Shown: piece after piece, positions 5,710 through 29,004 of the stretch
How positions within the stretch are numbered: the first letter of the stretch is position 1
Layout of the letters: each line of letters starts with the position of its first letter
Origin: Patescibacteria group bacterium
GTDB taxonomy: Bacteria > Patescibacteriota > Minisyncoccia > Phycocordibacterales > BOKC01
Direction: 5' to 3'
Length of the DNA stretch: 64,000 nt
Assembly: GCA_038062955.1 (NCBI GenBank)
Contig: JBBTWE010000001.1
Coordinates: 627,985-691,984 of the forward strand
Program-made: the position numbers and the translations under genes
Notes under the pieces: model-generated
What the model was told of the DNA's origin: nothing
What the model saw: only the letters and a program-made list of their open reading frames with translations
Databases searched by the model: none

Positions 5710-7983
5710 ATGAAAACAAAAGAGTATGTCCTAGAGGTTAATGGGAAAAATTTAACTTGTGAATTCAATGATCTAGCCAACCAAGCGAACGGTTCATGCA
5801 TCATAAAATATGGAGACACTAGTGTCTTAGCAACTGCGGTGATTTCAAAATTTCCAAAAGACAATTTTGATTTCTTTCCTTTAACTGTAGATTTTGAAGA
5901 AAAATTTTACGCCATTGGTAAAATTTTGGGCGGGCAGTATACCAAGAGAGAAGGACGGCCAACAGATGACGCGATACTTTCTGGGAGAATTGTTGATCGT
6001 ACTATTCGTCCACTTTTTGAAGATCATATTCGACATGAAGTTCAGGTGACACTTACAGTTTTGTCTTTAGGAGAAGATGATCCAGATGTTCTCGCTGTCA
6101 TTGCGGCGTCACTCGCTCTGGGTACTTCAAACATTCCTTGGCGAGGACCAACGAGCGCTATTCGAATTGGAAAATATAAAGAGTATTCAACTCCAAAACC
6201 CTTTGATCCGTCTTCGCTCGCGCATCATGAGAGTGAGTCGACAGGATCATTGTCGACACCTGTAAACGGCACTCTCGCGATGCCGCTCGCTAGCCGGAAT
6301 AAAAATAAAAAAGATTTAATAATTAACCCGACTTACAAAGAAAGAGGAGACGCCGAATTTGAATTTGATGTACTCGCCTGTGGTAAGGACAATACCTTAA
6401 ACATGATAGAAGCCGCCGGCAAAGAAACGAAGGAGGAAGATTTGAAACAGGCTTTGCAAAAAGCAGTTCTAGAAATAGAAAAAATTCAAAACTTTCAGAA
6501 AAAAATAATCGAAGAAATTGGCAAAGAAAAACTAGTTATTGAAAAAATAAAGACACCTGAAAATATTGAGAAGGTTTGGGAAGAATCGATTGCTCCGCAA
6601 ATTAAATCTGCGATCTTCAGTGACATGCCGATTTTTGAAAACAGAGGAGAAGAGTTTACATCCCACAAAAAGAAGATTCGAGATTTAGAAGAAGTCTGGA
6701 TGGAAAGTTTTGCTGAGAAAAATCCAAACGTAGATACTAATTTAGCTAAAAATTATTTTGAGATAAAAGTAAATGATCTGATTCACAAAGAGGCAATCGA
6801 AAATGACAGGCGTCCAGACGGCAGGAAGATCGATGAGCTCCGACCGCTTTTTGCCAAAGCTGGTGGCATCTCCAAAATTTTGCATGGTTCTGGAATATTT
6901 TACAGAGGAGGTACTCATGTTTTCTCTGCTCTAACTTTGGGCGGACCTGGCGATTCACAAACAATAGATGGAATGGAAACTCAAACACAGAAAAGATTTA
7001 TGCATCATTATAATTTTCCTCCTTTCTCGGTTGGTGAAACTGGAAGAATGGGAGGTATGAACAGAAGAGCCATCGGTCATGGAGCGCTCGCAGAAAAAGC
7101 TTTGCTTCCGATTTTGCCAGAAAAAGAAAATTTTCCTTACACGATAAGAGTGGTCTCGGAGTGCATGGCATCCAATGGTTCAACCTCGATGGCTTCGGTC
7201 TGCGCTGGAACTTTGGCTCTCATGGATGGTGGAGTTCCAATAAAATCTCCAGCGGCGGGTGTTGCGATCGGACTCATGATGCAAGGAGAAAAATATAAAA
7301 TTTTAACCGATATTCAGGGACCAGAAGATCACTATGGGGATATGGATTTTAAAGTGGCTGGGACAAAAAATGGTGTTACGGCTATCCAAATGGATGTCAA
7401 AGTGGAAGGAATTCCTATGCATATTCTTTGTGAAGCTTTAGATCGAGCCCAAAACGTGAGAGAACAAATTCTTAGAAAGATCCAAGAAGAAATAAAAAGC
7501 TCACGAGAAACAATATCTCCAAATGCTCCAAGGATCATGATTGTCAAAATCAAACCGGAGCAGATCGGACTTGTAATCGGTCCTGGAGGAAAATCAATCA
7601 ATCAAATAAAGGAGTTGACAGGGGTAGAGATTGATATAGAAGAAGACGGTAGTGTTTTCATTACTGGAAAAAATGACGGCCCAGAGAAAGCGGCAGAGAT
7701 GGTGAGAGGAATGACCAAAGAATACAAGGCTGGTGAAAGGTTCACCGGAGAAATAACAAAAATAGTTGAGTTTGGTGCTTTTGTTCGAATTGGCCAAAAA
7801 ACAGAGGGCCTCCTGCACATTTCTGAAATTGCCACCACAAGAATAGAAAAGGTAGAGGACATCTTATCTATTGGAGAAAAAATTCCTGTTATAATAAAAG
7901 AAATGGATGACAAAGGAAGAATGAAATTATCCTTGAAAGCCATCGAACCGGAGTTTTTCAAAAATAGGCCTAAGAAACGATAA
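5710..7983 (+). CDS. pnp: polynucleotide phosphorylase (PNPase)
   Basis: Two RNase PH-like domains followed by KH and S1 domains (C-terminal GERFTGEITKIVEFGAFV). 757 aa including a roughly 40-aa insertion, described in findings. Confidence 0.9.
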   Translation: MKTKEYVLEVNGKNLTCEFNDLANQANGSCIIKYGDTSVLATAVISKFPKDNFDFFPLTVDFEEKFYAIGKILGGQYTKREGRPTDDAILSGRIVDRTIRPLFEDHIRHEVQVTLTVLSLGEDDPDVLAVIAASLALGTSNIPWRGPTSAIRIGKYKEYSTPKPFDPSSLAHHESESTGSLSTPVNGTLAMPLASRNKNKKDLIINPTYKERGDAEFEFDVLACGKDNTLNMIEAAGKETKEEDLKQALQKAVLEIEKIQNFQKKIIEEIGKEKLVIEKIKTPENIEKVWEESIAPQIKSAIFSDMPIFENRGEEFTSHKKKIRDLEEVWMESFAEKNPNVDTNLAKNYFEIKVNDLIHKEAIENDRRPDGRKIDELRPLFAKAGGISKILHGSGIFYRGGTHVFSALTLGGPGDSQTIDGMETQTQKRFMHHYNFPPFSVGETGRMGGMNRRAIGHGALAEKALLPILPEKENFPYTIRVVSECMASNGSTSMASVCAGTLALMDGGVPIKSPAAGVAIGLMMQGEKYKILTDIQGPEDHYGDMDFKVAGTKNGVTAIQMDVKVEGIPMHILCEALDRAQNVREQILRKIQEEIKSSRETISPNAPRIMIVKIKPEQIGLVIGPGGKSINQIKELTGVEIDIEEDGSVFITGKNDGPEKAAEMVRGMTKEYKAGERFTGEITKIVEFGAFVRIGQKTEGLLHISEIATTRIEKVEDILSIGEKIPVIIKEMDDKGRMKLSLKAIEPEFFKNRPKKR
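6208..6297. repeat. GC-rich palindromic element embedded in-frame within pnp
   Basis: Local GC far above the surrounding gene; contains gtcgacacctgtaaacgg, which matches 33285..33302 at 17 of 18 positions, plus wider homology to the 33213..33322 insert. Confidence 0.5.
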
Positions 7984-8054
7984 AGATATTCACTCTTTGG
8001 TCTATCTTCGTTCGCTAACTGGAATAAACACAGAACGAGTATCTCATTTAAAAA

Positions 8055-8987
8055 ATGGAATTAAACAACAAAATAAACGAGACTAGGAATTCAACTACCG
8101 ATGAAAACTATTACAAAATAGTAAAACCTCTTCGAACTTACGAAAGAGATATTTCTGAATCAGTAAGAGAGAAAAAACCAAGCCAGATAAGCATTAATTT
8201 GGAAGAGAAAAAAAGGAAATCTGAAAAACACGAAGAAAATGGGCCAGCAAAAACCCAGCCGCAAGAAAATTATGATCATACTTCCAAAAATTCAGCTTTC
8301 AAGAAAATATTTGTCGTATTTTTTCTATTTTTGATTGTTATCGGAGTAATTGTTGTTTTTCCAAAATTTTGGAGTTTCTTAAAAGTTGAAAATACCGCAG
8401 AAATACCAGTTGTAAAAACAGAAACTTGGATAGAAGGAGATGTTCTCATAAAAATAAATGTAACGAATAAAACACGCCAAAAAATAATTGTTTTAATCAA
8501 AGAAGAACTCGAAAAAGTCACGCGAAAGGAATCTGGGGACTTAATTATAGTTAATCTAACAGAAATAATAGGTGGTGAAGAAAAAACAGTAACTGAAGAG
8601 AATTTTTTAAGAATAATGGCGCCGAATATACCTCAACCACTACTTAGAGCTTTAGATAAAAAAATGGCCTTTGGTTATCAAATAAAAGATGAGGCTAATG
8701 TTCCATTCTTAATATTAGAAATCGATTCTTACGAAAACGCTTATTCAAATATGTTGAATTGGGAGAGCAAAATGGCTTCAGATTTACTTGGTTTTTTAAC
8801 AGAAAATCAAGAAAATGAACCTAATAATAATTTTCAAGATCAAATAATCGAAAATAAAGATACTAGAATTCTAAGAAAAAATGATGGGTCAACTTCTTTG
8901 ATTTATTCATTTTTGAATAATAAGACATTGTTTTTAAGCACCGATAGGGATATTTATAGGAATATTCTTGCTATAATGAACTTCTAA
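8055..8987 (+). CDS. hypothetical single-pass membrane protein
   Basis: Long ORF with one TM helix (IFVVFFLFLIVIGVIVVF); no recognisable domain. Confidence 0.3.
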   Translation: MELNNKINETRNSTTDENYYKIVKPLRTYERDISESVREKKPSQISINLEEKKRKSEKHEENGPAKTQPQENYDHTSKNSAFKKIFVVFFLFLIVIGVIVVFPKFWSFLKVENTAEIPVVKTETWIEGDVLIKINVTNKTRQKIIVLIKEELEKVTRKESGDLIIVNLTEIIGGEEKTVTEENFLRIMAPNIPQPLLRALDKKMAFGYQIKDEANVPFLILEIDSYENAYSNMLNWESKMASDLLGFLTENQENEPNNNFQDQIIENKDTRILRKNDGSTSLIYSFLNNKTLFLSTDRDIYRNILAIMNF

Positions 8988-9024
8988 ACGTATCATTGAA
9001 TAGAAATTTCTATATTCAAATAAT

Positions 9025-9393
9025 ATGACAAATAAAGATCTAGATTTAAAATTTTTCAAAAAAAAGTTGGAAGAGGAAAAAGCAACTCTAATTTCAGAGC
9101 TTAAAACGGTTGGGGAGAAGAACCCAGACAATCCAGAAGATTGGGTTGCTAAACCAACTCAAATGAATGCGACTGGCGCAGACCAAAACGAAACTGCTGA
9201 TGGTTACGAGGCTTATGGTGAAAACGCGGCTATTCTAAACGAACTCGAAATTAGATTGGGCGAGGTGAACGCGGCAATAAAAAAAATTACCGAAAATAAG
9301 TACGGAACATGTGAAATCTGCAAACAACCAATAGAAGTAAAGCGACTTAAAGCCAATCCAGCCGCAGGAACTTGCATCAAACACATGAAATAG
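9025..9393 (+). CDS. DksA/TraR-family C4 zinc-finger protein
   Basis: C-terminal CEIC...(17)...GTC zinc-finger preceded by a coiled-coil, typical of DksA/TraR. Confidence 0.55.
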   Translation: MTNKDLDLKFFKKKLEEEKATLISELKTVGEKNPDNPEDWVAKPTQMNATGADQNETADGYEAYGENAAILNELEIRLGEVNAAIKKITENKYGTCEICKQPIEVKRLKANPAAGTCIKHMK

Positions 9394-15078: not shown

Positions 15079-15978
15079 TTGTATACATTTCTACTTCAAA
15101 AAATGATAAGTAAAAAATCATTAGTGTTAACCCTATCAAGTCTGTTTGCTCTCCTAATAATTTTTGGAGTTTTCTCATTTGTCCATAAAGAAAATGTCAT
15201 CACATACACAGCCCCAAACGAGCCAGTTTTTTTAACGGCAAGTTTTGCAGAAACGGATAAAAAAGATTTGGAAAATTGGGAGACGGAGATTTTAAATAGA
15301 AAATCGAGCGTTTCATCAGCGCGCACGTCATACACAGAAACAATCGCTAGATCGGCTTTGACAGAATATTTCAAAGCAAAAGACGCTAACGCCGCGATGA
15401 ATGAAGATGAAATAGCAAAAAGCATTATTCAAAAAACTTCAACAGAAAGTTTAGAGAGAAAAATTGAATTTTTAGAATATCAAATCAGTGATCTTAAAAT
15501 TATTTCTGACACAGGCAAAGAAGCATTAAAAACTTATGGGAATACTGTGGGAGAAGTAGCAATCAAAAATGTTTACAATGGAACATCTGGAAATGAGTTT
15601 GAAATATTCACTCGAGCAATGAATCAGAACGACCCCGTCGAATATGAAAATTTAAAACCTATAATTTCAAATTACGAAAAATTGATTTCTGATCTCCTTA
15701 AAATAGAAACCCCGTCGAGTTTGGCTAGCTCTCATCTAAAAGTAATAAATTCCTTGAGTGCAATTGCTGGCAGTATCAAAGAATTTAATGTGTTTTTAAC
15801 TGACCCACTTCGAGGAATTTTTATTCTAGCAAAATATGGAAGATATGGTTTGGAATTACAGAACGCCATGAAAGAAATTGACGCTTCAATGAAAAAAAAT
15901 CAGGTCAATTTTATAAACACCGACCCAGGATACTCAATAGAGAGAACAGCTAACGCTTCATTACCACCAAAGCAATGA
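15079..15978 (+). CDS. hypothetical membrane-anchored protein
   Basis: N-terminal TM helix; no recognisable domain; first gene of the T4SS-like block. Confidence 0.3.
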   Translation: MYTFLLQKMISKKSLVLTLSSLFALLIIFGVFSFVHKENVITYTAPNEPVFLTASFAETDKKDLENWETEILNRKSSVSSARTSYTETIARSALTEYFKAKDANAAMNEDEIAKSIIQKTSTESLERKIEFLEYQISDLKIISDTGKEALKTYGNTVGEVAIKNVYNGTSGNEFEIFTRAMNQNDPVEYENLKPIISNYEKLISDLLKIETPSSLASSHLKVINSLSAIAGSIKEFNVFLTDPLRGIFILAKYGRYGLELQNAMKEIDASMKKNQVNFINTDPGYSIERTANASLPPKQ

Positions 15979-16949
15979 GAATAAATCTAAGAAAAATCAC
16001 TGCTTCCGCTCTTACCTTAATTTTTTTAGTCTTTTTTGTTTTTTCTGTAGCTAAAAAATCACAAGCTCAAGTTTTTGTGCCAGTTAATGATTCTCTGTTC
16101 CAAACGGCAAATACCGCCCTCATGACCAGTTCCAACATGTATACGCTCCAAACTTCTGTGGCCACTGGTTTCTCTACAGCAAATGAAATTGGTCCTGTGC
16201 CGGGGATTTATCCGGGGGCCAACGCGGGCACAATAATTTCGGCTTCTCCATTAAGTGCCAATTATTGGGCAACTGCCGCATCCCGAGCACTTTTGAATTT
16301 AATGACTCAAGACATTGTGGGATGGATAAATAATGGTTTTTCTGGAGGGGGCCCAGGCTTCGTAACAGACCCAGAAGAATTTCTTCTAAACGCGGCAGAC
16401 ACTGTTGCGGGACAATTCATTGATGGATCTGAACTTGGCTTTCTCTGTGCCCCTTTTTCTGCAGATATTCGAGCTCTTTTGGCCTATAATTATTCAGTGT
16501 CGTTCGATGTTTCTTGTACCTTGAGTAGTGTCTTAAATAGAATAGAAAATTTTACAGCTTTTACTGAAGATTTTTCGCAAGGAGGATGGGAAGGATGGTT
16601 TGCTATGATGCAACCTCAAAATAATACCTACGGCTCATACTTAAAAGCTGAAGCAGAACTATCCGCCAGAATAAGTACGCGAAATGGCACATGGGAGAAG
16701 AAACTTAATTGGGGAAGTGGATTTTTGTCTTCTCAAGATTGTATAGATCCTCCAGGCGCAACTCTGGATAATTGTAAGACGATGGGACCGATAAAAACTC
16801 CTGGAAAAACGATTGAGACTGGACTTTCAAATACTTTAGGAATTGGTTTAACAGAAATAGGACTCGCGGACAGTGTTGATAAGATTTTAAATGCTTTAAC
16901 CAATTACGCGATTATGGAAGCTTTGGGTGCTTCAGGACTCCGACCATAA
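15975..16949 (+). CDS. hypothetical secreted protein
   Basis: Signal peptide followed by a Gly/Ala-rich body; 4-nt overlap with the upstream gene. Confidence 0.3.
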   Translation: MRINLRKITASALTLIFLVFFVFSVAKKSQAQVFVPVNDSLFQTANTALMTSSNMYTLQTSVATGFSTANEIGPVPGIYPGANAGTIISASPLSANYWATAASRALLNLMTQDIVGWINNGFSGGGPGFVTDPEEFLLNAADTVAGQFIDGSELGFLCAPFSADIRALLAYNYSVSFDVSCTLSSVLNRIENFTAFTEDFSQGGWEGWFAMMQPQNNTYGSYLKAEAELSARISTRNGTWEKKLNWGSGFLSSQDCIDPPGATLDNCKTMGPIKTPGKTIETGLSNTLGIGLTEIGLADSVDKILNALTNYAIMEALGASGLRP

Positions 16950-16979
16950 TTAAGTATTGAAGATTATAAAAAGAAATAG

Positions 16980-18983
16980 ATGATATTTAAAAACAAAAAA
17001 ATATTCAGTCTTCTCTTCCTCGGGGTAATCGCCTTGAGTTTTGTTTTGATTCCTTTACCTTTTTCTGATGTAAATATTGCTAATGCTCAGGAAGTTGCTG
17101 GCCCACCAGCACCAGGATGTAGCATTTGGGATTTAACATCCTGCCTTCATGTTATTTTGTCTTACCTAGGAGGCTTAGCTATGGGTCTTTTTGGAATTGT
17201 CTTAGGAATTTCTGGAATTTTATTAAACGGGGTCATGTCGTACACAATAGTAGACATGAGTATGAATTTGAGGTCTCTATTACAGGAAGGTGGTGGAATA
17301 TATCAAGCGTGGACCACACTAAGGGACTTAGCAAATATATTATTTATTTTTATCATCCTCTACATCGCAATCGGCACTATCCTTCGCTTGGATAGCATAA
17401 ACACCAAAAAACTTTTAGTTCACGTCGTAATTATCGCTCTTCTTTTAAACTTCAGTCTATTTTTCACTAAAGTAATAATTGACGCTTCAAATATTGTGGC
17501 AACCTCATTTCATAACGCTATTGTAATAAGTGGGGGAGGAACCGGCATTTCTGATGCTTTTGTGAAACCAATGAACATGACAAGTTTCTATAATGCAGAT
17601 GGGGCATCAGCATTTCTCTTAAAAGCTAAAGATTCTCTAGCGATGGTTTTTCTCGCCGGCTTTGCGTCAATCCTTTTTTTGATAACAGCTTTTGTATTTT
17701 TTGCCTCTTCTATAATGCTTATTTCAAGATATGTAATTTTAATTTTCCTTATGATTCTCTCACCGCTCGCCTTCATTGCTATGGCTTTGCCGAAAGATGA
17801 ATATTCGAAAAAATGGTGGAACGCTTTGATTGACCAGGCTCTCTTTGCTCCAGTTTTTTTGGCTCTTTTGTGGATCGCACTCATGCTATCGAGAAGCGCT
17901 TTAACCACTATAAGTAGTGAACAGAATTTTGCTGGCATGATCGCTGAAGTATTTACTGGCAATGTGCCAACTGGTCTCATGAAGCTACTTATCAACTTTT
18001 TGATAGTCATTGGATCAATTCTCTTTGCTCTCATTGCGGCCAAACAAATCGGTGGAGCAGGCGCTTCTGGAATTATGAAGTGGGGGAAGAAAGCCGCCGG
18101 TACAGCTTTGATGGCTATTCCAGGAAGATTAGCGGCTGGTGCAGACAAAAAATTAGGAGGAACTCGATTCGGCCAAACAATGGTGGGTTCTGCTCTTAGA
18201 TCTCCTCTGGGAGGCATCGGCAAAGCCAGTGTGTTAGGTGGCAAAAGTGGAGAAAAACAGAATAAGGAAAGTGATGAGGCCGCCAAAAAATATGCTGCGG
18301 TTAGAACCAAATACGACATAAAAAAGTCTGAAAAAATTGCCGAGAAAAAGTCTGGAGCAGCAGCGGATAGAGTTCCTGGAGAAATGATTCAGGAAGCCCA
18401 AAAAACAGAAGTGGCAATAGAAGCAAATCGTCAAAAGAGGCTTGATAGAATAAAAAAAGTTGAGGAAGGAAGAATACAGCAAACACAAAACAATATGACT
18501 ATCGGTGGTTCCACACAAACAACCAAACAAGAAATTACAAAAATTAGAAGCGAGGCCACACAAAGAATACAACAAGCAAACAAGACTGCGGAGGAAAAGA
18601 AAACTGAAGCCAAAGCTACAGTAACTTTATCGAGCATACAAACAAAGCAAGAGAAAGTTAGAAAAGAAGTTTATGATGATACTAAACAAAAAGAAAAAGA
18701 TAAAAGAATAGCGGAGCTAAAAAAGTTTAAAATACCATTTGTCACCAGAGTACCATTCTTCTCCGCAAGTAATAAAAAAAGAAAATTAGCTGCTGAATTT
18801 TTAGGAAAAGGCAGGACTGAAGTCGAAACAGATTGGGATAAATTATTAAAGGAAGTGAAGGAGGCCGCCAAAAAAGAAGAAAAGGGTCATGGTGAAGATA
18901 AAGGTGGTGGAAAAACCAGCAGTGGAGGAAGCGGTGGTAGCAGTAGTGGCGGAGGAGGGGGCGGTGGGGGCGCTCATCACTAA
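16980..18983 (+). CDS. VirB6/TrbL-like polytopic membrane protein with a Lys-rich coiled-coil C-terminal tail and a Gly/Ser tail
   Basis: Signal peptide, then about 6-8 TM helices, then a long charged C-terminal extension ending GGSGGSSSGGGGGGGG. Topology and context match VirB6/PrgH-type T4SS channel proteins, but no motif-level proof. Confidence 0.35.
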   Translation: MIFKNKKIFSLLFLGVIALSFVLIPLPFSDVNIANAQEVAGPPAPGCSIWDLTSCLHVILSYLGGLAMGLFGIVLGISGILLNGVMSYTIVDMSMNLRSLLQEGGGIYQAWTTLRDLANILFIFIILYIAIGTILRLDSINTKKLLVHVVIIALLLNFSLFFTKVIIDASNIVATSFHNAIVISGGGTGISDAFVKPMNMTSFYNADGASAFLLKAKDSLAMVFLAGFASILFLITAFVFFASSIMLISRYVILIFLMILSPLAFIAMALPKDEYSKKWWNALIDQALFAPVFLALLWIALMLSRSALTTISSEQNFAGMIAEVFTGNVPTGLMKLLINFLIVIGSILFALIAAKQIGGAGASGIMKWGKKAAGTALMAIPGRLAAGADKKLGGTRFGQTMVGSALRSPLGGIGKASVLGGKSGEKQNKESDEAAKKYAAVRTKYDIKKSEKIAEKKSGAAADRVPGEMIQEAQKTEVAIEANRQKRLDRIKKVEEGRIQQTQNNMTIGGSTQTTKQEITKIRSEATQRIQQANKTAEEKKTEAKATVTLSSIQTKQEKVRKEVYDDTKQKEKDKRIAELKKFKIPFVTRVPFFSASNKKRKLAAEFLGKGRTEVETDWDKLLKEVKEAAKKEEKGHGEDKGGGKTSSGGSGGSSSGGGGGGGGAHH

Positions 18984-19068
18984 AAAATCTTGAATTGGCA
19001 GAATTTAAATAAAAAATTTAAACCGTGAGAAAAAATATCGCACAGAACTTGACAAGTTTAACAATATT

Positions 19069-19098
19069 GTTATTATCTTGAGTAGAATCCAGTATTTT
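19069..19098 (+). promoter_or_regulatory. putative sigma70 promoter: TTGACA, 17-nt spacer, ATTATC
   Basis: Consensus -35 hexamer TTGACA at 19069 with a 17-nt spacer, upstream of the AAGGAG ribosome-binding site and the 19137 start. Confidence 0.35.
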
Positions 19099-19136
19099 GC
19101 TGGGTACTCACACTTTAACCTTACAAGGAGAAAAAC

Positions 19137-19406
19137 ATGCCATACTATTGTCCTTCTTGCCGTCATCAAGTGGGCCGCAATGCAACGGTGTGCCCAAATT
19201 GCGGAGAAAGGCCTGACGAACCATATGCCACTCTTGGGTGGAAGGAGGCGATGGAAGAAGCGGGAAAAAGACTGGAAAAAGAACGGGCAGAAGAAGCAAA
19301 GAAAGAAGAAATGACCCCAGAAGAGGCGAAGACTGTGGGTTGCTTGTTTCTTTTGCTTTTGGTGGGGTTGGGGATATTCTTTCTTTATAGGCAATTTATC
19401 GCATAA
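19137..19406 (+). CDS. zinc-ribbon protein with a C-terminal TM anchor
   Basis: CPSC...CPNC zinc-ribbon motif; C-terminal hydrophobic helix; strong AAGGAG ribosome-binding site. Confidence 0.4.
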   Translation: MPYYCPSCRHQVGRNATVCPNCGERPDEPYATLGWKEAMEEAGKRLEKERAEEAKKEEMTPEEAKTVGCLFLLLLVGLGIFFLYRQFIA

Positions 19407-19527
19407 CAACACACTCGCTCGGAACTAGCCTCTGACTACACGTCGGAGGTTTTTTAATATTAGCTTAAGTGTTATAATTTTTCTAACGAACACTCTTTAG
19501 TAAATGATAATTAATCTTTGAAATAAA

Positions 19528-20457
19528 ATGGAAGATTTAAAACAATTAATAAAAGATACCTACCAAAATCTACCAGAAGATCTGCAACAAGCAGTGATGA
19601 ACCCAAGTCTTAAAAACAGACTTGAAGATATTGGAAGGAAAAATAATTTGAACGAAGCGCAAGTTCAAGCTCTAAAAAACGAAACTTATTTTGTTCTACT
19701 CGCGCTTGAAACCATAAGCGACTTCCAAACGAATTTAGACAAACAAATTAATTTGGGAGAAGAAATAGCCGGAAAAATCGCGCTTTCGGTTTACGATGGG
19801 ATTTTTAAGCCCGTAGAAATTACTCTTTTAGCCATCGAGCAGATAATAAAGGAGAAAGAAGAGGAAGATGGAATTGTACCAGAAGAAACGAAGAATAATG
19901 AAGATAAAGAGCAGGCCCCCACTATAACTCCGTCATCTCAAAAAGAAATCTCAAGACCAAAAGATTGGCCTCGTGAAAAACCAGAGTTTCAGTCTATGAA
20001 GTCAATGATTGCGCCAAGAGAGATGCAAATTCAAAAAGTAAACGAGGAAGTGACTCCTTCTCGGGGTAAAGACGCGGCAATAGAAGAGACACTCCGAAGG
20101 GCTAAAGCGGAAATGGAAGGGGGTGATGTAAGTCTCTCTGGACAAAACCTAAGCGAAATTTCCTCTAGTTCAGGAAGTGATGATTTTAAATGGCCAGATG
20201 ACGTTGCGGGAGTTCGAATAGAAAATAAATCCGAAGAAGATCCTTTTACTCAAAATGAAAACAGTGAAAATGGTGGGGAGGAAAATTTAAATAAAGCGAC
20301 AGTTCTTGAGGAGATCGAACACCCACCAGCATATATGTCTTCTGCTTTTGAAAAGAAAATGCAAAAAACAGCACCACAACAAGTCGTTCCTCCAAAAAAT
20401 AAGCCGGATGTTGTCAAATACGGACAATCAGATCCATATCGCGAGCCAACAAATTAA
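19528..20457 (+). CDS. hypothetical acidic protein
   Basis: Long ORF with a Glu/Asp-rich low-complexity C-terminal half. Confidence 0.3.
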   Translation: MEDLKQLIKDTYQNLPEDLQQAVMNPSLKNRLEDIGRKNNLNEAQVQALKNETYFVLLALETISDFQTNLDKQINLGEEIAGKIALSVYDGIFKPVEITLLAIEQIIKEKEEEDGIVPEETKNNEDKEQAPTITPSSQKEISRPKDWPREKPEFQSMKSMIAPREMQIQKVNEEVTPSRGKDAAIEETLRRAKAEMEGGDVSLSGQNLSEISSSSGSDDFKWPDDVAGVRIENKSEEDPFTQNENSENGGEENLNKATVLEEIEHPPAYMSSAFEKKMQKTAPQQVVPPKNKPDVVKYGQSDPYREPTN

Positions 20458-20507: not shown

Positions 20508-20918
20508 ATGCGTTTTCAAGTTCCACAATTTACAGATGTCGAAGACAAAATAATTGGGTCTTTTACATTCAAACAATTTATTTACCTCGCAGGAGGAGGG
20601 GGAGCGTGCATAGCCCTCTATTTTCTTTTACCTTTCTTTGTGGCAATTCTTTTCATGATTCCCATAGCAGCACTCGCAGGCTCATTAGCTTTTCTTAAAA
20701 TCAACAGCCAACCTTTTGTGCAAGTTCTTGAATCTTATTTTAAATATTTAATGGCAGGTAGACTTTATATTTGGAGACACGAACCAAAAAAGATAGAAAG
20801 TGTGCCAGAAAACGGAGAAAATGATGCAAAAATAACTCTCCCAACCATGACAGAATCGAAATTAAAAGAAATCAATTGGAACCTTGATGTGAAGAAGGAT
20901 GCAGATACACCGCTTTAG
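20508..20918 (+). CDS. PrgI/VirB3-like small membrane protein
   Basis: 136 aa with a two-TM hairpin (FKQFIYLAGGGGACIALYFLLPFFVAILFMIPIAALAG) immediately upstream of VirB4, as for VirB3/PrgI-family genes. Confidence 0.45.
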   Translation: MRFQVPQFTDVEDKIIGSFTFKQFIYLAGGGGACIALYFLLPFFVAILFMIPIAALAGSLAFLKINSQPFVQVLESYFKYLMAGRLYIWRHEPKKIESVPENGENDAKITLPTMTESKLKEINWNLDVKKDADTPL

Positions 20919-20988
20919 AAAGAAATTTGATAATTTAGTAAACCAATAGAAATGATATAATCATTGCCACAGCCTCATTTACATAAAA

Positions 20989-21636
20989 ATGGAAATTAAC
21001 GCAAAAGCAACGCAAGAATTCGTTCCGATAAAAGAAGTTAGGGACGGAACAATCATACTCAAAGATAACAGTCTACGGGCCATAATCATGGCTTCTTCTA
21101 TCAATTTTGCCCTGAAGGGCGCAGATGAGAGAAACGCTATTCTCTATCAATTCCAAGTTTTTTTAAACTCCCTCGATTTTCCAGTGCAGATAGTTGTTCA
21201 GTCTCGAGAGCTTGATATACGGCCATACTTAGCTCTACTGGAACAAAGAGAGAAAAGCCAAGTAAACGAACTCATGAAAATACAGATAGAAGAGTATATC
21301 GGATTCATAAAAGATTTTACTGAAAATACGAATGTTATGACTAAAAATTTCTTTGTGGTTGTTTCCTACACCCCCGCAGTTCTTCAGGGAAAAATCAATA
21401 AAGGGATGTTGAGCGGTTTATTTGGGAAAAAAGAGAAAAAAGAAGACATCAAGAGAGGGCAGGAAGAATCTTTTGAAGAAAATCGGACACAATTAGAACA
21501 AAGGATAGCTGTCGTTGAACAAGGATTAGTGAGATGCGGTATTAGAATCGCAAGACTAGGAACAGAAGAGGTGACGGAAATATTTTATAGAGTGTTTAAT
21601 CCTGGAGAATCGGAGAAGTCTATTAAGTTGGGTTAA
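20989..21636 (+). CDS. VirB4/TrbE-like conjugal transfer ATPase, N-terminal fragment (split gene)
   Basis: N-terminal pattern (PIKEVRDGTIILKDNSLRAIIMASSINFALKGADE...QIVVQSRE) resembles the N-terminal region of Gram-positive VirB4 (TcpF/PrgJ type). Stops 48 nt before the next ORF, which is in a different frame. Confidence 0.45.
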   Translation: MEINAKATQEFVPIKEVRDGTIILKDNSLRAIIMASSINFALKGADERNAILYQFQVFLNSLDFPVQIVVQSRELDIRPYLALLEQREKSQVNELMKIQIEEYIGFIKDFTENTNVMTKNFFVVVSYTPAVLQGKINKGMLSGLFGKKEKKEDIKRGQEESFEENRTQLEQRIAVVEQGLVRCGIRIARLGTEEVTEIFYRVFNPGESEKSIKLG

Positions 21637-21683
21637 GTTTAAGGTCAGAAGTTAAACCAATAAACTTAAAACTTGTAACTACA

Positions 21684-23504
21684 ATGTCCTTAATCGATAA
21701 ATTATTTAAAAGTAAAAAACCACAGGAAGAAAATAGTGGCCCGATACTGCCGCAGGAAATTTATGAAGCGGGAGCTTTGGAACTGCGCGATATTATTGCT
21801 CCAAGCGCCCTTAAGATCAGCCCTAAGGAATTAAATTTGGGGAATAAAATCGTTAGGACGTATTTTGTAATTTCTTACCCAAGATATCTAGGGGAGAGTT
21901 GGTTTTCTCCAATTATAAACTTAGACAAAATTTTCGATGTCTCCATATTTATCCATCCAGTAGACACATCAAAAGTTTTGAAACAATTTCAAAAGAAAGT
22001 GGCCGAAATTCAGAGCCAAATCCACGCCAGGGAAGCCAAAGGAATGGTAAGGGATCCGATGCTAGACACCGCATATGAAGACTTAGAAAATCTCCGCGAC
22101 AGTCTCCAGCAGGCCCAAGAAAAACTTTTTGACGTTGGACTTTATCTTTCAATTTATGCAGAAAATGAGAATGAGCTCGATAAAATTGAGGCTGAAATTA
22201 GGTCAATTTTGGAATCCCAACTTGTCTATACAAAACCAGCCTTATTCCAACAAGAACAAGGTTTCAGAAGTGTTGTGCCGCTTGCAACTGATCTTCTGAA
22301 CGTCCACTCCAAATTAAATTCTTCACCACTTTCTAGCATCTTTCCGTTCGTCTCGTTTGATTTAACTTCAGATAAGGGAATTCTTTATGGAATCAACAGA
22401 CACAATTCCGGACTTGTTTTGTTCGACCGTTTTTCTTTGGAAAATTACAACTCCGTCACATTTGCTAAATCAGGTTCTGGAAAATCCTATGCTACAAAAT
22501 TAGAAATACTGCGAACTTTGATGTTTGATACAGATGTCATGGTAATTGACCCTGAAAGAGAGTACGAGTATATGGCTGATGCCATAGGGGGCCGTTATTT
22601 CAAAATCTCGCTGACTTCAGAACATCATATAAATCCTTTTGATTTGCCACCTGTTGGAGAAGGGGAGTCTTCGGCTGACATATTGCGATCAAGTATCATA
22701 AATCTTGTTGGTCTCTTTCGTATTATGTTTGGGGGTCTCTCTCCAGAAGAAGATGCGATTATTGATCGAGCTATCACCGAAACATACGCGCTTAAAGACA
22801 TAACCGCTGAATCTGATTTTACAAATGTTGATGTGCCAATACTGTCAGATTTTGAGATGGTTCTATCAGGAATGGAAGGAGCCGAATCTTTAGTAAACCG
22901 CTTAACCAAATATACCAAAGGAACGTGGTCTGGTTTTATAAATAAACCAACCAATGTCGATATAAATAAAAAATTTGTCGTTTTCTCTCTGCGTGATATG
23001 GAAGATGAACTCAAACCTGTCGCGATGTATATCGTCATGCACCACATTTGGGGCGCCATAAGAAAGGAACTGAAAAAACGACTGCTAGTAATAGACGAGG
23101 CATGGTGGATGATGAAATCTGAAGACACAGCCAGTTTCTTGCTTAATCTTGCTAAAAGAGGCCGAAAATACTACCTAGGGCTTTCCACAATCACTCAAGA
23201 TGTGGATGATTTCTTGAAATCTCCATACGGCATGCCGATTGTTACCAATTCTTCGATTCAAATTCTTCTCAAACAATCACCGACCACAATAGACAAACTC
23301 CAACAAACATTCAATTTAACCGAGGAAGAAAAATATTTGCTTTTGGAATCTGGAGTAGGAGAGGGAATATTCTTCGCTGGTCTTAAACATGTGGCGGTAA
23401 AAATCATAGCTTCTTATACTGAAGATCAGATCATCACCTCCGACCCATCACAGATATTGGCCATTAAGAAAGCCAAGCAGGAATTGAAGAACTCGGAAAA
23501 GTAG
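21684..23504 (+). CDS. VirB4/TrbE-like conjugal transfer ATPase, main body
   Basis: Walker A FAKSGSGKSYATKLEIL, Walker B LLVIDEAWWMM, and the VRTYFVISYPRYLGESWF VirB4-like segment. Confidence 0.7.
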   Translation: MSLIDKLFKSKKPQEENSGPILPQEIYEAGALELRDIIAPSALKISPKELNLGNKIVRTYFVISYPRYLGESWFSPIINLDKIFDVSIFIHPVDTSKVLKQFQKKVAEIQSQIHAREAKGMVRDPMLDTAYEDLENLRDSLQQAQEKLFDVGLYLSIYAENENELDKIEAEIRSILESQLVYTKPALFQQEQGFRSVVPLATDLLNVHSKLNSSPLSSIFPFVSFDLTSDKGILYGINRHNSGLVLFDRFSLENYNSVTFAKSGSGKSYATKLEILRTLMFDTDVMVIDPEREYEYMADAIGGRYFKISLTSEHHINPFDLPPVGEGESSADILRSSIINLVGLFRIMFGGLSPEEDAIIDRAITETYALKDITAESDFTNVDVPILSDFEMVLSGMEGAESLVNRLTKYTKGTWSGFINKPTNVDINKKFVVFSLRDMEDELKPVAMYIVMHHIWGAIRKELKKRLLVIDEAWWMMKSEDTASFLLNLAKRGRKYYLGLSTITQDVDDFLKSPYGMPIVTNSSIQILLKQSPTTIDKLQQTFNLTEEEKYLLLESGVGEGIFFAGLKHVAVKIIASYTEDQIITSDPSQILAIKKAKQELKNSEK

Positions 23505-23525
23505 AATCCAAATTCTCAATTAATT

Positions 23526-23867
23526 ATGATGCCTCCAACAAACACTGCTCCTCAAATATCCAGCATCTGGGCGACTATTATGGTAGGAGTGGCTTTATGT
23601 TTTGATATTATTGTCTTTCTTATCAATCTGATTCCTATTTTGGGTCAAGTTGTTGGAATGATTATTGGCTTTATTGCTTATTTAATTTTTTGGCTCTGGT
23701 TTACGTTAAAAGGAGTGAGTCTTATGAGGCCTAAGAGAGCCGCGGCAATGGGCACGGGTTTTTTAATATCCCTTATACCCATTTTGAATATGCTTCCGGA
23801 AATAACTATTTCTGTTGTTATTACTATTGCATCAACCAGGGTAAAACTACCAGGAGTAAGAGCCTAA
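23526..23867 (+). CDS. small polytopic membrane protein
   Basis: 113 aa with 3 predicted TM helices; sits in the T4SS-like block. Confidence 0.3.
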   Translation: MMPPTNTAPQISSIWATIMVGVALCFDIIVFLINLIPILGQVVGMIIGFIAYLIFWLWFTLKGVSLMRPKRAAAMGTGFLISLIPILNMLPEITISVVITIASTRVKLPGVRA

Positions 23868-23903
23868 ATCGTGTTAGAATAAATAAGTTAAAAAGGCAAA
23901 AAA

Positions 23904-24920
23904 ATGAGTTTAAACAGAATAAATTTCATATTAGCTTTATTACTGTTTATTTTTACTATTCCTCTACACGCCCAAACACTTGATTTACCAGTTTCAAATT
24001 TACCTAATGCTGAAAGTTTTTTGAGCATTAAGACAACTCCAACAAACCCCGGTCCTAGACAAAAAGTTACCGCTACTTTAATTTTTTACCAAACCGACAC
24101 CAAGAAAGCCAATATTTCCTGGTATTTAAATGCGGAATTGAAAGAAAAAAAGATTGGTAAAACAAGTTTTGAATTCGAGACTGGCGGTATAGGATCTTTT
24201 TCTTCAGTGGCTGTAGTGATAGACACTTTTGAGGGTGAAGTTTTTCAAAAAGAAATCGTGCTGCGACCAGCTGAAGTAAATCTTGTCGCAAATGCGGAAA
24301 CTTACACACCACCATTTTACAAAGGCAGGGCTCTTTATACTCAAAAAACTGACGTCAGAATTACCGCTATTCCAGAATTTTTAAATTCAGACGGTCAAAA
24401 AATCAAACCTCAAAATTTAATGTATAAATGGCAACAAGGGAATTCTGTTTTAGGAGAACAATCGGGGGTTGGTAGAAATTCTATAACCGTTCCAGGAGAA
24501 ACTATCACAAGGCCCCTCGACATTCGAGTCGAAGTTTCTACTTTGGATGAGAGAATAAAAGCAAACGGAAGCATTGTTGTCAGAAAAGGGGAGCCAAAGG
24601 TTTTGATATACGAAAAAAATCCTCTTTTAGGCCTCCTTCTTAATCAAAAAGCGGATTTACTATTTATTTCAGAAAAAGAAATTACTTTAGAAGCAGTGCC
24701 TTACTTCTTTAGTGTTCCAACAAAAAATAGTTCCGGCATAGAGTATTTCTGGACTCAAAATTCACAAAAAATTGAATCGGGAGACGAGCAAAGTTCTATT
24801 ATTTTGAGACAAACGGAAGAAAATATGACCGGCAATGTAAATATTGGCGTTCGAGTAACAAATAAAGATAACCAACTTCAAAGCGATAGTTTTAATACAG
24901 AAATTATTTTAGGAAACTAG
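23904..24920 (+). CDS. hypothetical secreted protein
   Basis: Signal peptide; body with beta-rich character. Confidence 0.3.
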   Translation: MSLNRINFILALLLFIFTIPLHAQTLDLPVSNLPNAESFLSIKTTPTNPGPRQKVTATLIFYQTDTKKANISWYLNAELKEKKIGKTSFEFETGGIGSFSSVAVVIDTFEGEVFQKEIVLRPAEVNLVANAETYTPPFYKGRALYTQKTDVRITAIPEFLNSDGQKIKPQNLMYKWQQGNSVLGEQSGVGRNSITVPGETITRPLDIRVEVSTLDERIKANGSIVVRKGEPKVLIYEKNPLLGLLLNQKADLLFISEKEITLEAVPYFFSVPTKNSSGIEYFWTQNSQKIESGDEQSSIILRQTEENMTGNVNIGVRVTNKDNQLQSDSFNTEIILGN

Positions 24921-24923
24921 AAA

Positions 24924-25529
24924 ATGCAAAACAAAACTAAAAACAAAATAATTGCCCTGCTTCTTCTTTCTGTTATTTTGACATCTTTTGGGGGCGCAAT
25001 AATTGTTTATGCCCAACCACAACAATACACGCCACTCGCTCCACTCGATCCTAATTTGGTAGGTCCTCCTGCTCCAACTAATCTAGGAACATATGCGAAT
25101 GCTATGGTAAAAATTTTAATAGGAATTGCCGCGGTTTTGGCCATAATAATGATTATGATTGGCGGACTGCAATACATGTCTACCGATGCCATAAGCGGCA
25201 AACAAGAGGGTAAAGAAAGGATAACCCAGGCATTGTTTGGTCTTGGACTTGCCATAGCAAGCTGGCTTATTCTAGCCACGATAAGTCCAACGCTCCTAAA
25301 AGTTAATTTAACTGTCATTTCTCCTCCCCAACGATGTTTCCCAATCTCAAATAATATGACTGGAGAAGCTTTTGCTTCCATTGCTTGCATACAAGAAGAA
25401 ATTAGATACCGTTCTTATTTAAACGACAATCAGTGCAGGATATTAAATTCTACCGCGTGCCGTGTGATAACAACACCGTCCCGACAGTATTGTTTTGATA
25501 TTACATATGATAACTGTTCAAGTAGTTGA
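24924..25529 (+). CDS. TrbC/VirB2-like pilin candidate
   Basis: Signal peptide followed by two hydrophobic helices (ILIGIAAVLAIIMIMIGGL and ALFGLGLAIASWLILATI), a topology typical of VirB2/TrbC pilins; adjacent to VirB4. Confidence 0.35.
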   Translation: MQNKTKNKIIALLLLSVILTSFGGAIIVYAQPQQYTPLAPLDPNLVGPPAPTNLGTYANAMVKILIGIAAVLAIIMIMIGGLQYMSTDAISGKQEGKERITQALFGLGLAIASWLILATISPTLLKVNLTVISPPQRCFPISNNMTGEAFASIACIQEEIRYRSYLNDNQCRILNSTACRVITTPSRQYCFDITYDNCSSS

Positions 25530-25536
25530 TTAAAAA

Positions 25537-27069
25537 ATGCCCAAAACCATTAAAAAAATTATTTTTGCCGCCCTATTGATTGTCCTAATTGGATTAATCG
25601 GATTTGGTTTTTGGAATTTTCAAAATAGAGACAGTGAGAGTGGAGAGGGAATAAGTATTAGAGATTTTTTACCTTTCGGAAAAGCCCCGACGGGACCTTC
25701 TACATCTACTCCAACATCTACCCCTCAAATAAATCCAGTAAATGGAGGGAGTGAGTCAGAATTGCCAAAACTTCGAAAAATTTCGGAAAAGCCGATAGCC
25801 GGCGCTTTGGCATTTAAAGATAATTCTGATTTAAAAATAAGATTCGTAGACAAAGCTACCGGACACATCTTTGAAGCAAACACTGAAGATATCAGTCTGA
25901 AAAGACTCACAAATACCACCATGCCTAAAATAGAAGAGGCGGTTTGGGCAGGAGAAAGTTCTGTGGTTTTGCGATATCTTAAAAAAGATGAGGAAACGAT
26001 AGAGAGTGTGGTTTTAAAATTAATTCCAAAAAACGAGAGTGATAGGCCGTTCGAATTTAAAAAAAATCTTAAGGAAGGAGATGTGAACGTGGATGTGCTT
26101 TATCTTCAAAAAACTTTGAATAGGGATGTTGAAACTCTTATTGCAGAATCTGGCCCAGGAAGTAGGGGAAACGAAACAAATCGTTTTGGTCCAAAAACAA
26201 CTGAAGCAGTTAAAAAATTCCAAGTTAAATATTCTGACAACATTCTGAAACCACAAAACCTAACGACTCCATCCGGACTAGTAGATGACCTCTCAAGAGA
26301 AAAACTAAACGAAATAACTGGCGTAAACGCAGAACAATCCGAAGAAGAGGAGAATCTGTATCAAACCGCCCTAACCTTCCTTTCAGAAGACATTAAAAGC
26401 CTTGCGTTTATTGAAAGTTTGCAGAAAATCTTTTACCTCGAAGAAGATAGTTTGGGCACCATTGGAACACTCGTAGACATTTCAAACCAAAAGAAAACCC
26501 AGATTTTTGAGTCTGGCGCCACAGAATGGACTGTTCACAAAAACAGGAAGGATGTGGTTATCTCAACTAAAGCCTCTGGTAACGCCGAAGGACTTATTTA
26601 TTCTCTAAGTCCTGTTGGAGCTATGAAAAAACTCTTGGGAGGACAATTGGGACTTACAGGAAATGTTTCTCCTTCAAAAGAAAAAATTCTCTATTCCGTG
26701 AGCTCAAGAAATGGTTTTACTTTAAACCTTTATGATGGCCTTCAAGACCAGTCATCCAGAATTGATCAATCAACTCTTCCAGAAAAATGTGTTTGGAGTA
26801 AATTAAATTCAAAAATTATTTACTGTGCAGTGCCTAAAAACACACCGAGCGGAGACTATCCTGAATCTTGGTACCAAGGTGGAGTGTCATTTAATGACGA
26901 TATTTGGACGATAGATACAGAAACTGAAGAGGGGATATTAACCCAAGAATTAGATTCAACCGACGGAGTGGATATGTTTCTATCGCAAGACGAACAATAC
27001 TTATTTTTTACTAATAAAAAAGACTCAAGCCTCTGGTCGTTACGTTTGGTGAATAGTGAAACAGAATAA
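25537..27069 (+). CDS. secreted protein with a peptidoglycan-binding-like domain
   Basis: PG_binding_1-like segment GDVNVDVLYLQKTLN...NRFGPKTTEAVKKFQ; N-terminal TM helix. Confidence 0.4.
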   Translation: MPKTIKKIIFAALLIVLIGLIGFGFWNFQNRDSESGEGISIRDFLPFGKAPTGPSTSTPTSTPQINPVNGGSESELPKLRKISEKPIAGALAFKDNSDLKIRFVDKATGHIFEANTEDISLKRLTNTTMPKIEEAVWAGESSVVLRYLKKDEETIESVVLKLIPKNESDRPFEFKKNLKEGDVNVDVLYLQKTLNRDVETLIAESGPGSRGNETNRFGPKTTEAVKKFQVKYSDNILKPQNLTTPSGLVDDLSREKLNEITGVNAEQSEEEENLYQTALTFLSEDIKSLAFIESLQKIFYLEEDSLGTIGTLVDISNQKKTQIFESGATEWTVHKNRKDVVISTKASGNAEGLIYSLSPVGAMKKLLGGQLGLTGNVSPSKEKILYSVSSRNGFTLNLYDGLQDQSSRIDQSTLPEKCVWSKLNSKIIYCAVPKNTPSGDYPESWYQGGVSFNDDIWTIDTETEEGILTQELDSTDGVDMFLSQDEQYLFFTNKKDSSLWSLRLVNSETE

Positions 27070-27215: not shown

Positions 27216-27692
27216 CTAGCGCCTAAGTTTTATAACCACTCTTCTTTGGTCTCTTTCTCCCACTGACTCTGTAACCACCCCTGAATCAGGTCCAAAGAGG
27301 GTATGGATGATCATTCTTTCGTAAGAGGACATGGGCTCCATCTCTACACTTTTTCTAGACTCCAAGACTTGCTTTCCAAGTAAGGTAGCAAGAGCTCTTA
27401 TTTTTTTAGCATTTTCTTCTTGATAATTGTTTATATCGATATTAAATTTAGCTAATCCTCTTTTTTTAAAAACTATTTTCCTTACTATATGGTTTAGAGC
27501 TTTCAAATGGTCTCCTTCATGACCTATTAAAATAGAGGAATCCAAACTTTTAATCACAAACTTTGGGAGAGATGGTCCGAACTCTGAAACCTCCACTTTA
27601 TCAAACGCAATATTGAGTTTTTTTAATAAAGTCTCTATAACGCCCTTAACTTCCAAATAATATGTAGCTGTATTTTCTTTGTCATTTGGCAT
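27216..27692 (-). CDS. jag: Jag/KhpB-family RNA-binding protein (KH + R3H)
   Basis: KH-like and R3H motifs (YERMIIHTLF...GERDQRRVVI); conserved position downstream of yidC. Confidence 0.7.
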   Translation of the reverse strand: MPNDKENTATYYLEVKGVIETLLKKLNIAFDKVEVSEFGPSLPKFVIKSLDSSILIGHEGDHLKALNHIVRKIVFKKRGLAKFNIDINNYQEENAKKIRALATLLGKQVLESRKSVEMEPMSSYERMIIHTLFGPDSGVVTESVGERDQRRVVIKLRR

Positions 27693-27711
27693 GTTAGGGA
27701 GTTAGATGTTT

Positions 27712-28449: not shown

Positions 28450-28485
28450 TCGGCTATTGTAATCTATTTTGATTGAAAACGAAAG

Positions 28486-28833: not shown

Positions 28834-28869
28834 TTTATTAAGAGTTTTGTCCCTTTAAAGGAATTTCCT

Positions 28870-29004
28870 TTATACCGACAGGCTTTTTCTTCCTTTTCGA
28901 CGTCTATTTCTTACAACTCTCTTTCCATTAGCAGATTTATTTCTCACCAAAAATCCGTGAGTGGTTTTTCTTTTTCTGTTTTTTAGATTTAGAATTTTCC
29001 CCAT
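28870..29004 (-). CDS. rpmH: 50S ribosomal protein L34
   Basis: Not in the ORF track because it is under 60 aa. Translating the minus strand gives [44 protein letters not shown], a classic L34 sequence (44 aa). Confidence 0.85.

Follow-up and report, generated by a model that had tools for sequence, protein, structure and literature searches.

A hairpin-forming mosaic repeat family with one in-frame copy in the polynucleotide phosphorylase gene of a Patescibacteria genome

What is the GC-rich segment that interrupts the gene for polynucleotide phosphorylase (PNPase) in a Patescibacteria group bacterium, how did it come to lie there in frame, and what does it do to the enzyme? We addressed these questions in a 64,000-nt stretch of contig JBBTWE010000001.1 (assembly GCA_038062955.1, positions 627,985 to 691,984 of the forward strand; hereafter the window, whose own numbering is used throughout). 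The segment in pnp of this ultra-small groundwater bacterium is a copy of a non-autonomous, hairpin-forming interspersed repeat, and it is probably translated and tolerated as an in-frame passenger. The repeat family is new, and its copy in pnp is an intragenic palindromic repeat of the kind known from Rickettsia palindromic elements (RPEs) and REPs; our literature searches returned no description of such repeats in Patescibacteria or the Candidate Phyla Radiation. The host gene and the inserted copy are as follows.

5710..7983, + strand: pnp, the host gene of the insertion, encoding a PNPase of 757 residues (Pfam RNase_PH twice, RNase_PH_C, KH_1 and S1)
6176..6303, + strand: repeat copy c1 with both flanking ATAAA (6176-6180 and 6299-6303), scoring 90.2 bits with the family covariance model (E 4.5e-21)

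A preliminary description of this DNA had proposed an insertion of about 40 residues in PNPase and suggested an alignment with relatives as a check of its lineage specificity. The closest relatives are 715-716 residues long (P0002, 715 residues, at 88% identity; P0003 at 77%), and in an alignment of 64 PNPases exactly 41 extra residues between GKY and KNKKD are found in the window sequence alone, missing from 63 of 63 relatives including these two. Codon-level alignment with the two closest orthologues gives a net insertion of exactly 123 nt, or 41 codons, and the orthologous empty site in loci L001 and L002 reads GGAAAATAY/AAAAATAAAAAAG, where the slash marks the insertion point.

The insertion is confirmed as real and is not an assembly artefact, because independent assemblies of different samples and filter fractions gave four contigs in which the 2274-nt gene, insert included, is identical; these contigs are 99.97-99.99% identical over 10-18 kb. 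The window PNPase is also 100% identical to that of the NCBI metagenome-assembled genome (MAG) GCA_964363395.1, a contig of 703,865 bp. Comparison with the P0002 orthologue gives a ratio of nonsynonymous to synonymous substitution rates (dN/dS) of 0.077 at a dS of 0.47, and pnp is under strong purifying selection.

The inserted DNA has the composition and symmetry that the preliminary description had seen in a GC-rich patch with nested inverted repeats at 6208-6297, an interval that proved to be the core of the 6176-6303 element. GC content is 0.57 in the c1 patch vs 0.38 window-wide. Both inverted repeats were recovered, one with 14-nt arms that are 86% complementary (GCATCATGAGAGTG / CACTCTCGCGATGC) and one with fully complementary arms (GTCGACA / TGTCGAC, 7/7), and the RNA folds at -41.7 kcal/mol (z = -4.7 vs shuffles). 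Its parts, besides a small hairpin at the left end, are listed here.

6208..6236, + strand: 5′ arm of the long hairpin, CCGTCTTCGCTCGCGCATCATGAGAGTGA (RNAalifold)
6237..6269, + strand: 33-nt REP-like module in the apical loop of the long hairpin, a GTCGAC stem-loop with the conserved tail ACCTGTAAACGG (nhmmer, E 3e-7)
6270..6297, + strand: 3′ arm of the long hairpin, CACTCTCGCGATGCCGCTCGCTAGCCGG (fold, inverted-repeat search and RNAalifold)

Across the family, a canonical copy measures ~85 nt and has the form (A)TAAAGGGTATTAACCCTTTGATCCGTCTTCGCTCGCGCATCATGAGAGTG-loop-CACTCTCGCGATGCCGCTCGCTAGCCGGAATAAA. It consists of a small hairpin (hairpin 1, AAAGGG-TATTAA-CCCTTT) followed by a long, imperfect, GC-rich hairpin (CCGTCTTCGCTCGCGCATCATGAGAGTG ... 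CACTCTCGCGATGCCGCTCGCTAGCCGG). The two hairpins are conserved as structures: RNAalifold on nine copies recovers both, with 29 pairs of which 11 show compensatory changes. The left end (ATAAAGGGTATTAACCC) shows no similarity to the reverse complement of the right end (TTTATTCCGGCTAGCG), so that the terminal inverted repeats of a classical MITE are absent.

Into this framework a variable number of modules is set. Each is 30-34 nt long and comprises a 6-7-bp stem, GTCGAY/RTCGAC (CCTACC/GGTAGG in one copy), and a conserved tail, CACCTGTAGACGG; this tail, also written ACCTGTAGACGG, has GTAG on one strand and CGTC on the other. The stem covaries, with 92% of cells paired and compensatory changes at four of its seven pairs, a level reached by 1 of 500 shuffles. 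Copies carry no module (L014, L017 and L021), one (c1, c2, L024 and L040), two (L027) or three (L035b), placed in either orientation in the apical loop, within the 3′ arm or beside hairpin 1, or replacing the 5′ arm. In the DNA examined, modules occur only inside the host element and never elsewhere. The element is a mosaic whose 33-nt module can move separately.

The preliminary description had also called for a search for further copies. Three members of the family lie in the window: c1 within pnp, c3 at the pnp stop codon and c2 upstream of a Kelch-repeat gene. A scan of the window with the family covariance model returned nothing beyond these three.

7980..8028, + strand: copy c3, an internally deleted mini-element of 49 nt (covariance model 25 bits, E 6.6e-4)
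33207..33324, - strand: copy c2, a 113-nt insertion plus ATAAA, 30 nt upstream of the Kelch-repeat gene (covariance model 61 bits; blastn vs c1)
33270..33302, + strand: 33-nt module of c2, GTCGACTGGTTAGGTGTCGACACCTGTAGACGG (motif match, nhmmer module model and repeat-pair search)

How c1 and c2 are related needed revision. The pnp segment had been described as sharing a short motif and, over a wider stretch, similarity with 33213..33322. The shared motif stood: GTCGACACCTGTARACGG occurs exactly twice in the window (6252 and 33285) vs 0.01 occurrences expected by chance. The wider similarity needed correction: on the same strand blastn aligns only the 33-nt module (27/33), and the outer arms align with the opposite strand instead (32/40 and 31/40). 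Homology therefore covers almost all of both copies, the inner module having been inverted and moved; in c2 it lies between hairpin 1 and the long hairpin, in the orientation opposite to that in c1. Copy c2 folds, on the + strand, at -49.2 kcal/mol (z = -5.4).

Of the full element, copy c3 keeps hairpin 1 together with the first part of the 5′ arm and the last part of the 3′ arm (a 16-mer match with three mismatches). Read by eye, its deletion joins the arms at CGCTCGC, a direct repeat present in both arms. Its left ATAAA contains the pnp stop codon TAA (7981-7983), and it is not found in the orthologous spacers of L001 and L002.

Outside the window we found at least 13 distinct copies by a metagenome scan, nhmmer and the covariance model, which brings the family to ~16 in total. 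The metagenome scan, made with the 3′-end motif, yielded 31 loci, about half of them true members and the rest chance matches. The outside copies come from samples with the P0003 organism (Ga0209541 / Ga0209542), from Ga0163151, which is sister to the sample with the P0002 organism, and from other contigs of the window's own groundwater site (Hain-H43). The repeat is nonetheless missing from the recovered pnp genes of the P0002 and P0003 organisms, although copies occur in those or sister samples. On present sequence evidence, the carriers of the family form a small clade of Patescibacteria (Parcubacteria/Paceibacteria-like), known from metagenomes of groundwater and sediment.

Where flanks could be read, nearly all copies sit in short intergenic spacers, often overlapping a stop codon or within 30 nt of a start, and their orientation relative to neighbouring genes is about evenly split (~7 forward, ~8 reverse). 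The presence of both orientations and the lack of a fixed placement suit selfish DNA that targets AT-rich sites in a compact genome better than they suit a regulatory RNA with a set orientation. Only one of ~16 copies, that in pnp, is clearly intragenic, and in-frame insertion is the exception in this family.

The element belongs to no known RNA family: the whole window gave no Rfam match at gathering thresholds, and permissive scans of c1 and c2 gave one meaningless match to a long non-coding RNA. Scans for tRNA and tmRNA found none in the window, and promoter and terminator scans at the copies found nothing above shuffled expectation. A scan of genome contigs with TTCCGGCTARCGAGCGNNATCG returned one chance match in an Eremiobacterota MAG, scans of viral contigs with two patterns returned no matches, and blastn against plasmid and phage collections returned none. 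A hammerhead or other small ribozyme, a candidate prompted by the permuted modules, was rejected, as the core motifs misfit and Rfam gave no match.

The boundaries of the element are as constant as its interior is variable. Every copy ends with ATAAA, and ATAAA stands both on the left and at the right end in 13 of the 14 copies whose left flank was read; the remaining copy, L014, has GTAAA on the left. Filled and empty versions of a site can be compared at pnp, as described above, and at the Kelch genes. The window holds two paralogous Kelch-repeat genes (33353-34558 and 36231-37385; 74-82% nucleotide identity) whose upstream leaders are also shared (36097-36230 vs 33096-33352). The leader of the second gene aligns to both flanks of c2 without the 113 nt.

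36197..36201, + strand: empty site corresponding to c2 in the leader of the second, paralogous Kelch gene, TTTGT vs TTTAT...TTTAT at the filled site (alignment, repeat pair)

Both empty sites, the orthologous one in pnp and the paralogous one at the Kelch gene, correspond to AATAY/AAA, with one ATAAA or ACAAA already present; insertion therefore adds the element and one ATAAA. Occupancy also differs in the opposite direction: at locus L027, syntenic with window 8628-9393, a copy with two modules separates a 310-residue gene from a dksA-like gene, and neither the window nor L002 has an element there. The pattern fits either a 5-bp duplication of a strongly preferred target or insertion on the 3′ side of a constant pentanucleotide with which the element itself also ends, as happens in single-strand transposition of the IS200/IS605 type. 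The two are inseparable here, because the same repeat borders every copy.

In the spacer next to c2, between the ORF (open reading frame) at 32838-33095 and the copy itself, a near-perfect palindrome (ATACATAGGACGACCCTATGTAT, 33126-33148) is preceded by an A-run, has a T-run in its complement and resembles a bidirectional terminator.

How could such an element enter pnp without destroying it? In the pnp frame, canonical copies read GGG TAT TAA, and since TAA is a stop codon in this frame, a standard copy would cut PNPase short at about residue 160. The pnp copy differs from the others in its first loop.

6188..6196, + strand: 9-nt loop expansion CAACTCCAA in hairpin 1 (8 nt relative to TATTAAAC variants), from alignment and frame analysis

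Among the aligned copies, this expansion, CAACTCCA(A), is seen only in pnp. Copies L024 and L040, which come from the same sampling site and share the architecture of c1, are 115 nt long, which is no multiple of three, and 115 + 8 = 123. The expansion of 8-9 nt thus splits the TAA and also raises the length of c1 to 123 nt. Of its six frames, c1 is open in one only, namely that of pnp. Either a rare variant was inserted or the frame was rescued later, and both ways selection for an intact pnp is evident; a small secondary indel appears to have rescued the frame.

Two further observations concern reading frames in the family. The copy at L032:1444-1535 shares an open frame with the upstream extension of a MurC-like ORF, and in the longest version of that ORF the Mur_ligase domain begins only at residue 65. 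This copy could be translated as well, extending the N terminus, or it could merely lie upstream of a true start near 1435. Separately, the net insertion length is a multiple of three in nine of 13 copies (window, L013-L040), though most are intergenic; the binomial P of ~0.009 assumes independent copies, which they are not, and modules are ~33 nt long.

The preliminary description had suggested placing the inserted loop on the PNPase structure, and the segment falls at a turn between two β-strands and is modelled as disordered. In an AlphaFold2 monomer model (mean per-residue confidence, pLDDT, of 80; predicted template modelling score, pTM, of 0.77), residues 161-199 have pLDDT <50; a strand at 149-156 precedes them, and a strand of two residues follows directly after the insert. 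The alignment with 5yjj, the closest solved PNPase structure, breaks at query residues 155/204, corresponding to chain residues 168/174. The turn has a fixed length in 50 of 64 relatives, and it is a permissive site, because PNPases P0084 and P0110, from another lineage, have an unrelated insert of ~20 residues at the same turn. By the strand boundary, the alignment break and the variable length of the turn, the insert position is compatible with the fold of the host protein. The 41-residue peptide is rich in Ser, Thr and Pro, and the model suggests that it is probably a disordered surface loop at a β-hairpin turn of the first RNase PH domain.

A search of a representative library of 1.84 billion proteins found no homologues of the peptide, only eukaryotic tandem-repeat artefacts. 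Word-indexed searches with concatenated six-frame peptides and with an alignment came back empty and missed even the PNPase of the window itself, so that they are uninformative on other hosts.

The insert of the P0084/P0110 PNPases (L043:10461-10530, Parcubacteria-type) is itself a Ser/Thr-rich segment of ~20 residues, SGSEEPSGHSTQRVSDSTSSMSRN, whose DNA contains the short palindromes GGCTCTGAAGAGCC and GACTCAGAGAGTC. Examined as a possible repeat, it has an unexceptional fold (z = -1.3) and no second copy in its 14-kb locus. The window PNPase and its two closest relatives also share, alone among those aligned, a 12-residue segment in the helical domain (PIFENRGEEFTS; window 6625-6660, residues ~306-317). 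It is likewise of low confidence (pLDDT <50 at 310-317) and is an older lineage-specific insertion, unrelated to the repeat.

Taken together, these results suggest the following course of events. Insertion takes place precisely at ATAAA-like sites, leaving each element bounded by ATAAA on both sides, and one such insertion struck a TAT-AAA codon pair at the β-hairpin turn of the first RNase PH domain. The 8-9-nt expansion of the first loop removes the TAA and leaves a 123-nt copy open in the pnp frame, which would be translated as a Ser/Thr/Pro-rich, probably disordered surface loop of 41 residues. The enzyme would tolerate this loop, and the insert would be a passenger that contributes no functional domain. 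Spread would be catalysed in trans, most likely by an enzyme acting on single-stranded DNA (HUH/Y1, RAYT- or IS200/IS605-like), which we regard as the likeliest kind because the ends are hairpins and lack inverted repeats. Family membership, the precise insertion with its empty sites, the conserved hairpin structures, an intact and constrained host gene and a low-confidence loop in the model are seen directly in the data; translation of the loop, its neutrality and spread in trans are inferred.

Some points weigh against this reading. Tolerance of an in-frame insertion is deduced from the single clearly intragenic copy, the presence of the loop in the mature protein is predicted from the gene, and the monomer model gives no position of the loop relative to the trimer channel. 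The ATAAA flanks could be a true 5-bp target duplication made by a DDE enzyme. Pfam detected neither a transposase nor an HUH enzyme among the 53 ORFs of the window and the 20 beside other copies, 14 kb of extra flank contained no transposase either, and tblastn with IS608 TnpA and E. coli RAYT queries gave no match; the enzyme searches covered 78 kb of the 704-kb genome (~11%) plus the flanks of other copies.

Several known repeat systems offer close parallels. RPEs (Ogata et al. 2000, reviewed in PMC10969869) insert in frame into housekeeping genes, and the preliminary description had likened the pnp segment to them. Like RPEs, the elements described here are short (~100-150 nt), palindromic, interspersed and present in multiple copies in a reduced genome with no associated transposase, and one copy lies in frame in a housekeeping gene with its peptide at a fold-compatible position. 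RPE-4 and RPE-6 have been placed among the CGTC-tagged families (Di Nocera et al., PMC3733652), and in the present family CGTC lies at the base of the long hairpin and also, read in complement, within the tail of the module. There are differences, however: the host belongs to another phylum. In some RPE families nearly half of the copies are intragenic and encode a conserved peptide, whereas here the canonical frame contains a stop and frequent in-frame insertion into unrelated genes is absent, the pnp copy being the only one inside a long ORF. The mosaic build with a movable sub-module and the constant ATAAA borders also set the family apart. The analogy to RPEs is supported as a description of behaviour, and membership of the RPE families is not supported.

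REPs, which have been sorted into GTAG- and CGTC-tagged super-families (Di Nocera et al., PMC3733652) and form systems associated with RAYTs (PMC3479197, PMC8266576), resemble the module in particular. The module is a stem-loop of 6-7 bp with compensated stem variation and a conserved unpaired tail, GTAGACG, that contains GTAG and, in complement, CGTC. Single, tandem and inverted modules all occur, nested in larger palindromes as in some REP families, and REPs inside genes are known. The tag here, however, lies 4 nt from the stem on its 3′ side instead of abutting the 5′ side. Stems of 6-7 bp with loops of 7-9 nt contrast with 8-9 bp and 4-5 nt in CGTC-1 to CGTC-4, the apparent copy number is modest, and no RAYT gene was seen in the DNA examined.

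The constant ends enclosing a variable number of internal sub-units (0-3 modules), the nesting of elements and the stable RNA structure recall BOX of Streptococcus pneumoniae and BIME of E. coli (PMC10969869). There is no known sequence relation to either, and the internal units of BOX are tandem and co-oriented, whereas those described here take several positions and both orientations. IS200/IS605-derived PATEs (PMC6006769) likewise lack terminal inverted repeats and have different hairpins near their two ends. Our element matches them in its subterminal hairpins (hairpin 1 on the left, the long hairpin on the right) and in its fixed pentanucleotide; a copy preceded by and ending in ATAAA is the pattern of insertion 3′ of a specific target without duplication. 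Unlike those systems, no TnpA or Y1 gene was seen in the 78 kb examined. The 5-nt direct repeat around the copies recalls the target duplications of MITEs, but it is the same repeat in every copy.

These likenesses allow a more specific proposal, which we offer tentatively and regard as possible rather than probable. In an ultra-small genome of the Candidate Phyla Radiation, the family may represent a novel type of mobile DNA that moves as a single strand under the guidance of hairpins. An ATAAA-specific element that lacks inverted-repeat ends would itself be the preferred landing pad for a 33-nt REP-like module with overlapping GTAG/CGTC tags, and some HUH-type enzyme, or a host replication or repair activity, would move both.

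Other explanations must be set against a tolerated mobile passenger. The repeat could be a signal of benefit to the host, such as a stabilising or terminating hairpin or a site for a nuclease or nucleoid protein, with the pnp copy regulating its own mRNA, for instance by autoregulation through hairpin cleavage. The mRNA of E. coli PNPase is autoregulated through hairpins. In our family, compensatory changes maintain the hairpins, and most copies abut start or stop codons of housekeeping genes. Published surveys add that REPs and MITEs are often co-opted as host signals (PMC10969869, PMC3733652). A requirement of transposition explains the structural conservation equally well, however, and copies lie in both orientations, upstream, downstream and between divergent genes, without a uniform placement. 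They show no U-tract terminator signature, and occupancy differs among close relatives at three loci, as expected of mobile DNA. We therefore consider a host signal unlikely. Another possibility is that the element is in the gene and absent from the protein, either because the ribosome hops over it (programmed translational bypassing) or because the RNA is processed, to give a PNPase of orthologue length. Bypassing has precedents in T4 gene 60 and the mitochondrial 'byp' elements of Magnusiomyces. Identical codons flank the insert (TAT AAA ... AAT AAA), take-off at the first AAA and landing at the second would restore GKYKNKKD exactly, and the intervening RNA is a very stable hairpin. Yet the length of the insert divides exactly by three, its only open frame is that of pnp, and the unique 8-9-nt change that removes the stop would be needless if the EYSTPKPFDPSSLAHHESESTGSLSTPVNGTLAMPLASR segment were skipped. 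In known bypass systems a stop codon follows the take-off codon; none follows the putative one here. Bypassing or processing is accordingly very unlikely.

That the loop is a functional, lineage-specific feature of PNPase, having arisen in situ either de novo or through duplication, with the intergenic likeness due to capture of pnp sequence or to chance, is a reading we hold to be extremely unlikely. The turn does tolerate length variation, as the ~20-residue insert of the other lineage attests, but homology at the nucleotide level extends over the whole element to at least 15 intergenic copies in several organisms, and c1 scores 90 bits on the family model. Its GC content departs from that of the window, its ATAAA boundaries are as precise as those of other copies, and its peptide lacks homologues in the representative library. 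Repeats are common sites of misassembly in metagenomes, and a chimeric join through the repeat, or an error of binning, might produce such a gene; the four concordant contigs, with the frame intact on both sides of the insert, leave this a negligible chance. A copy of a mobile repeat, inserted at an ATAAA-like site and carried along in frame, remains the reading that we prefer.

Other features of the window stand apart from the repeat family. Two intergenic repeat pairs, each at 85% identity, lie just downstream of minus-strand genes (5054-5106/13476-13528, 53 nt; 11162-11213/27161-27212, 52 nt) and may represent other small repeat or terminator families. A cluster resembling type IV secretion or conjugation systems (PrgI family, TraG/VirB4-like ATPase and a type IV secretion system pilin) spans 20508-27069, near many ORFs without a Pfam match (15079-20457). 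At 27216-31899 the gene order is of the origin type, with Jag/R3H, yidC and rnpA on the - strand, then dnaA and dnaN on the + strand and a 425-nt gap before dnaA; GC skew in the window shows no clear switch at dnaA. The highest local GC content in the window (0.68) belongs to a G-rich run at 48570-48640, which encodes a poly-Gly/Ser linker in the ORF at 47356-48849 (MG2 and dockerin matches) and is unrelated to the repeat.

Rickettsia is the best-known source of palindromic repeats that lie within genes and remodel essential proteins, and the pnp copy adds a new host group. A mosaic repeat family that looks active resides even in a genome of ~0.7 Mb, where selfish DNA has little room. Filled and empty sites in orthologues and in a paralogue, an apparent rescue of the reading frame and a structurally well-understood host enzyme make the locus a natural experiment. 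Inserts of this kind inflate the apparent novelty of proteins in metagenomic catalogues and can mislead orthology and structure-based annotation. The ATAAA borders, the ends without inverted repeats and the nested module bear on how transposase-less palindromic repeats propagate. If the single-strand reading is true, Patescibacteria would join the groups in which RPE-like in-frame inserts are linked to tagged REPs, and the small genome, few copies and filled and empty sites would make this family a tractable system for the spread of transposase-less CGTC-type repeats.

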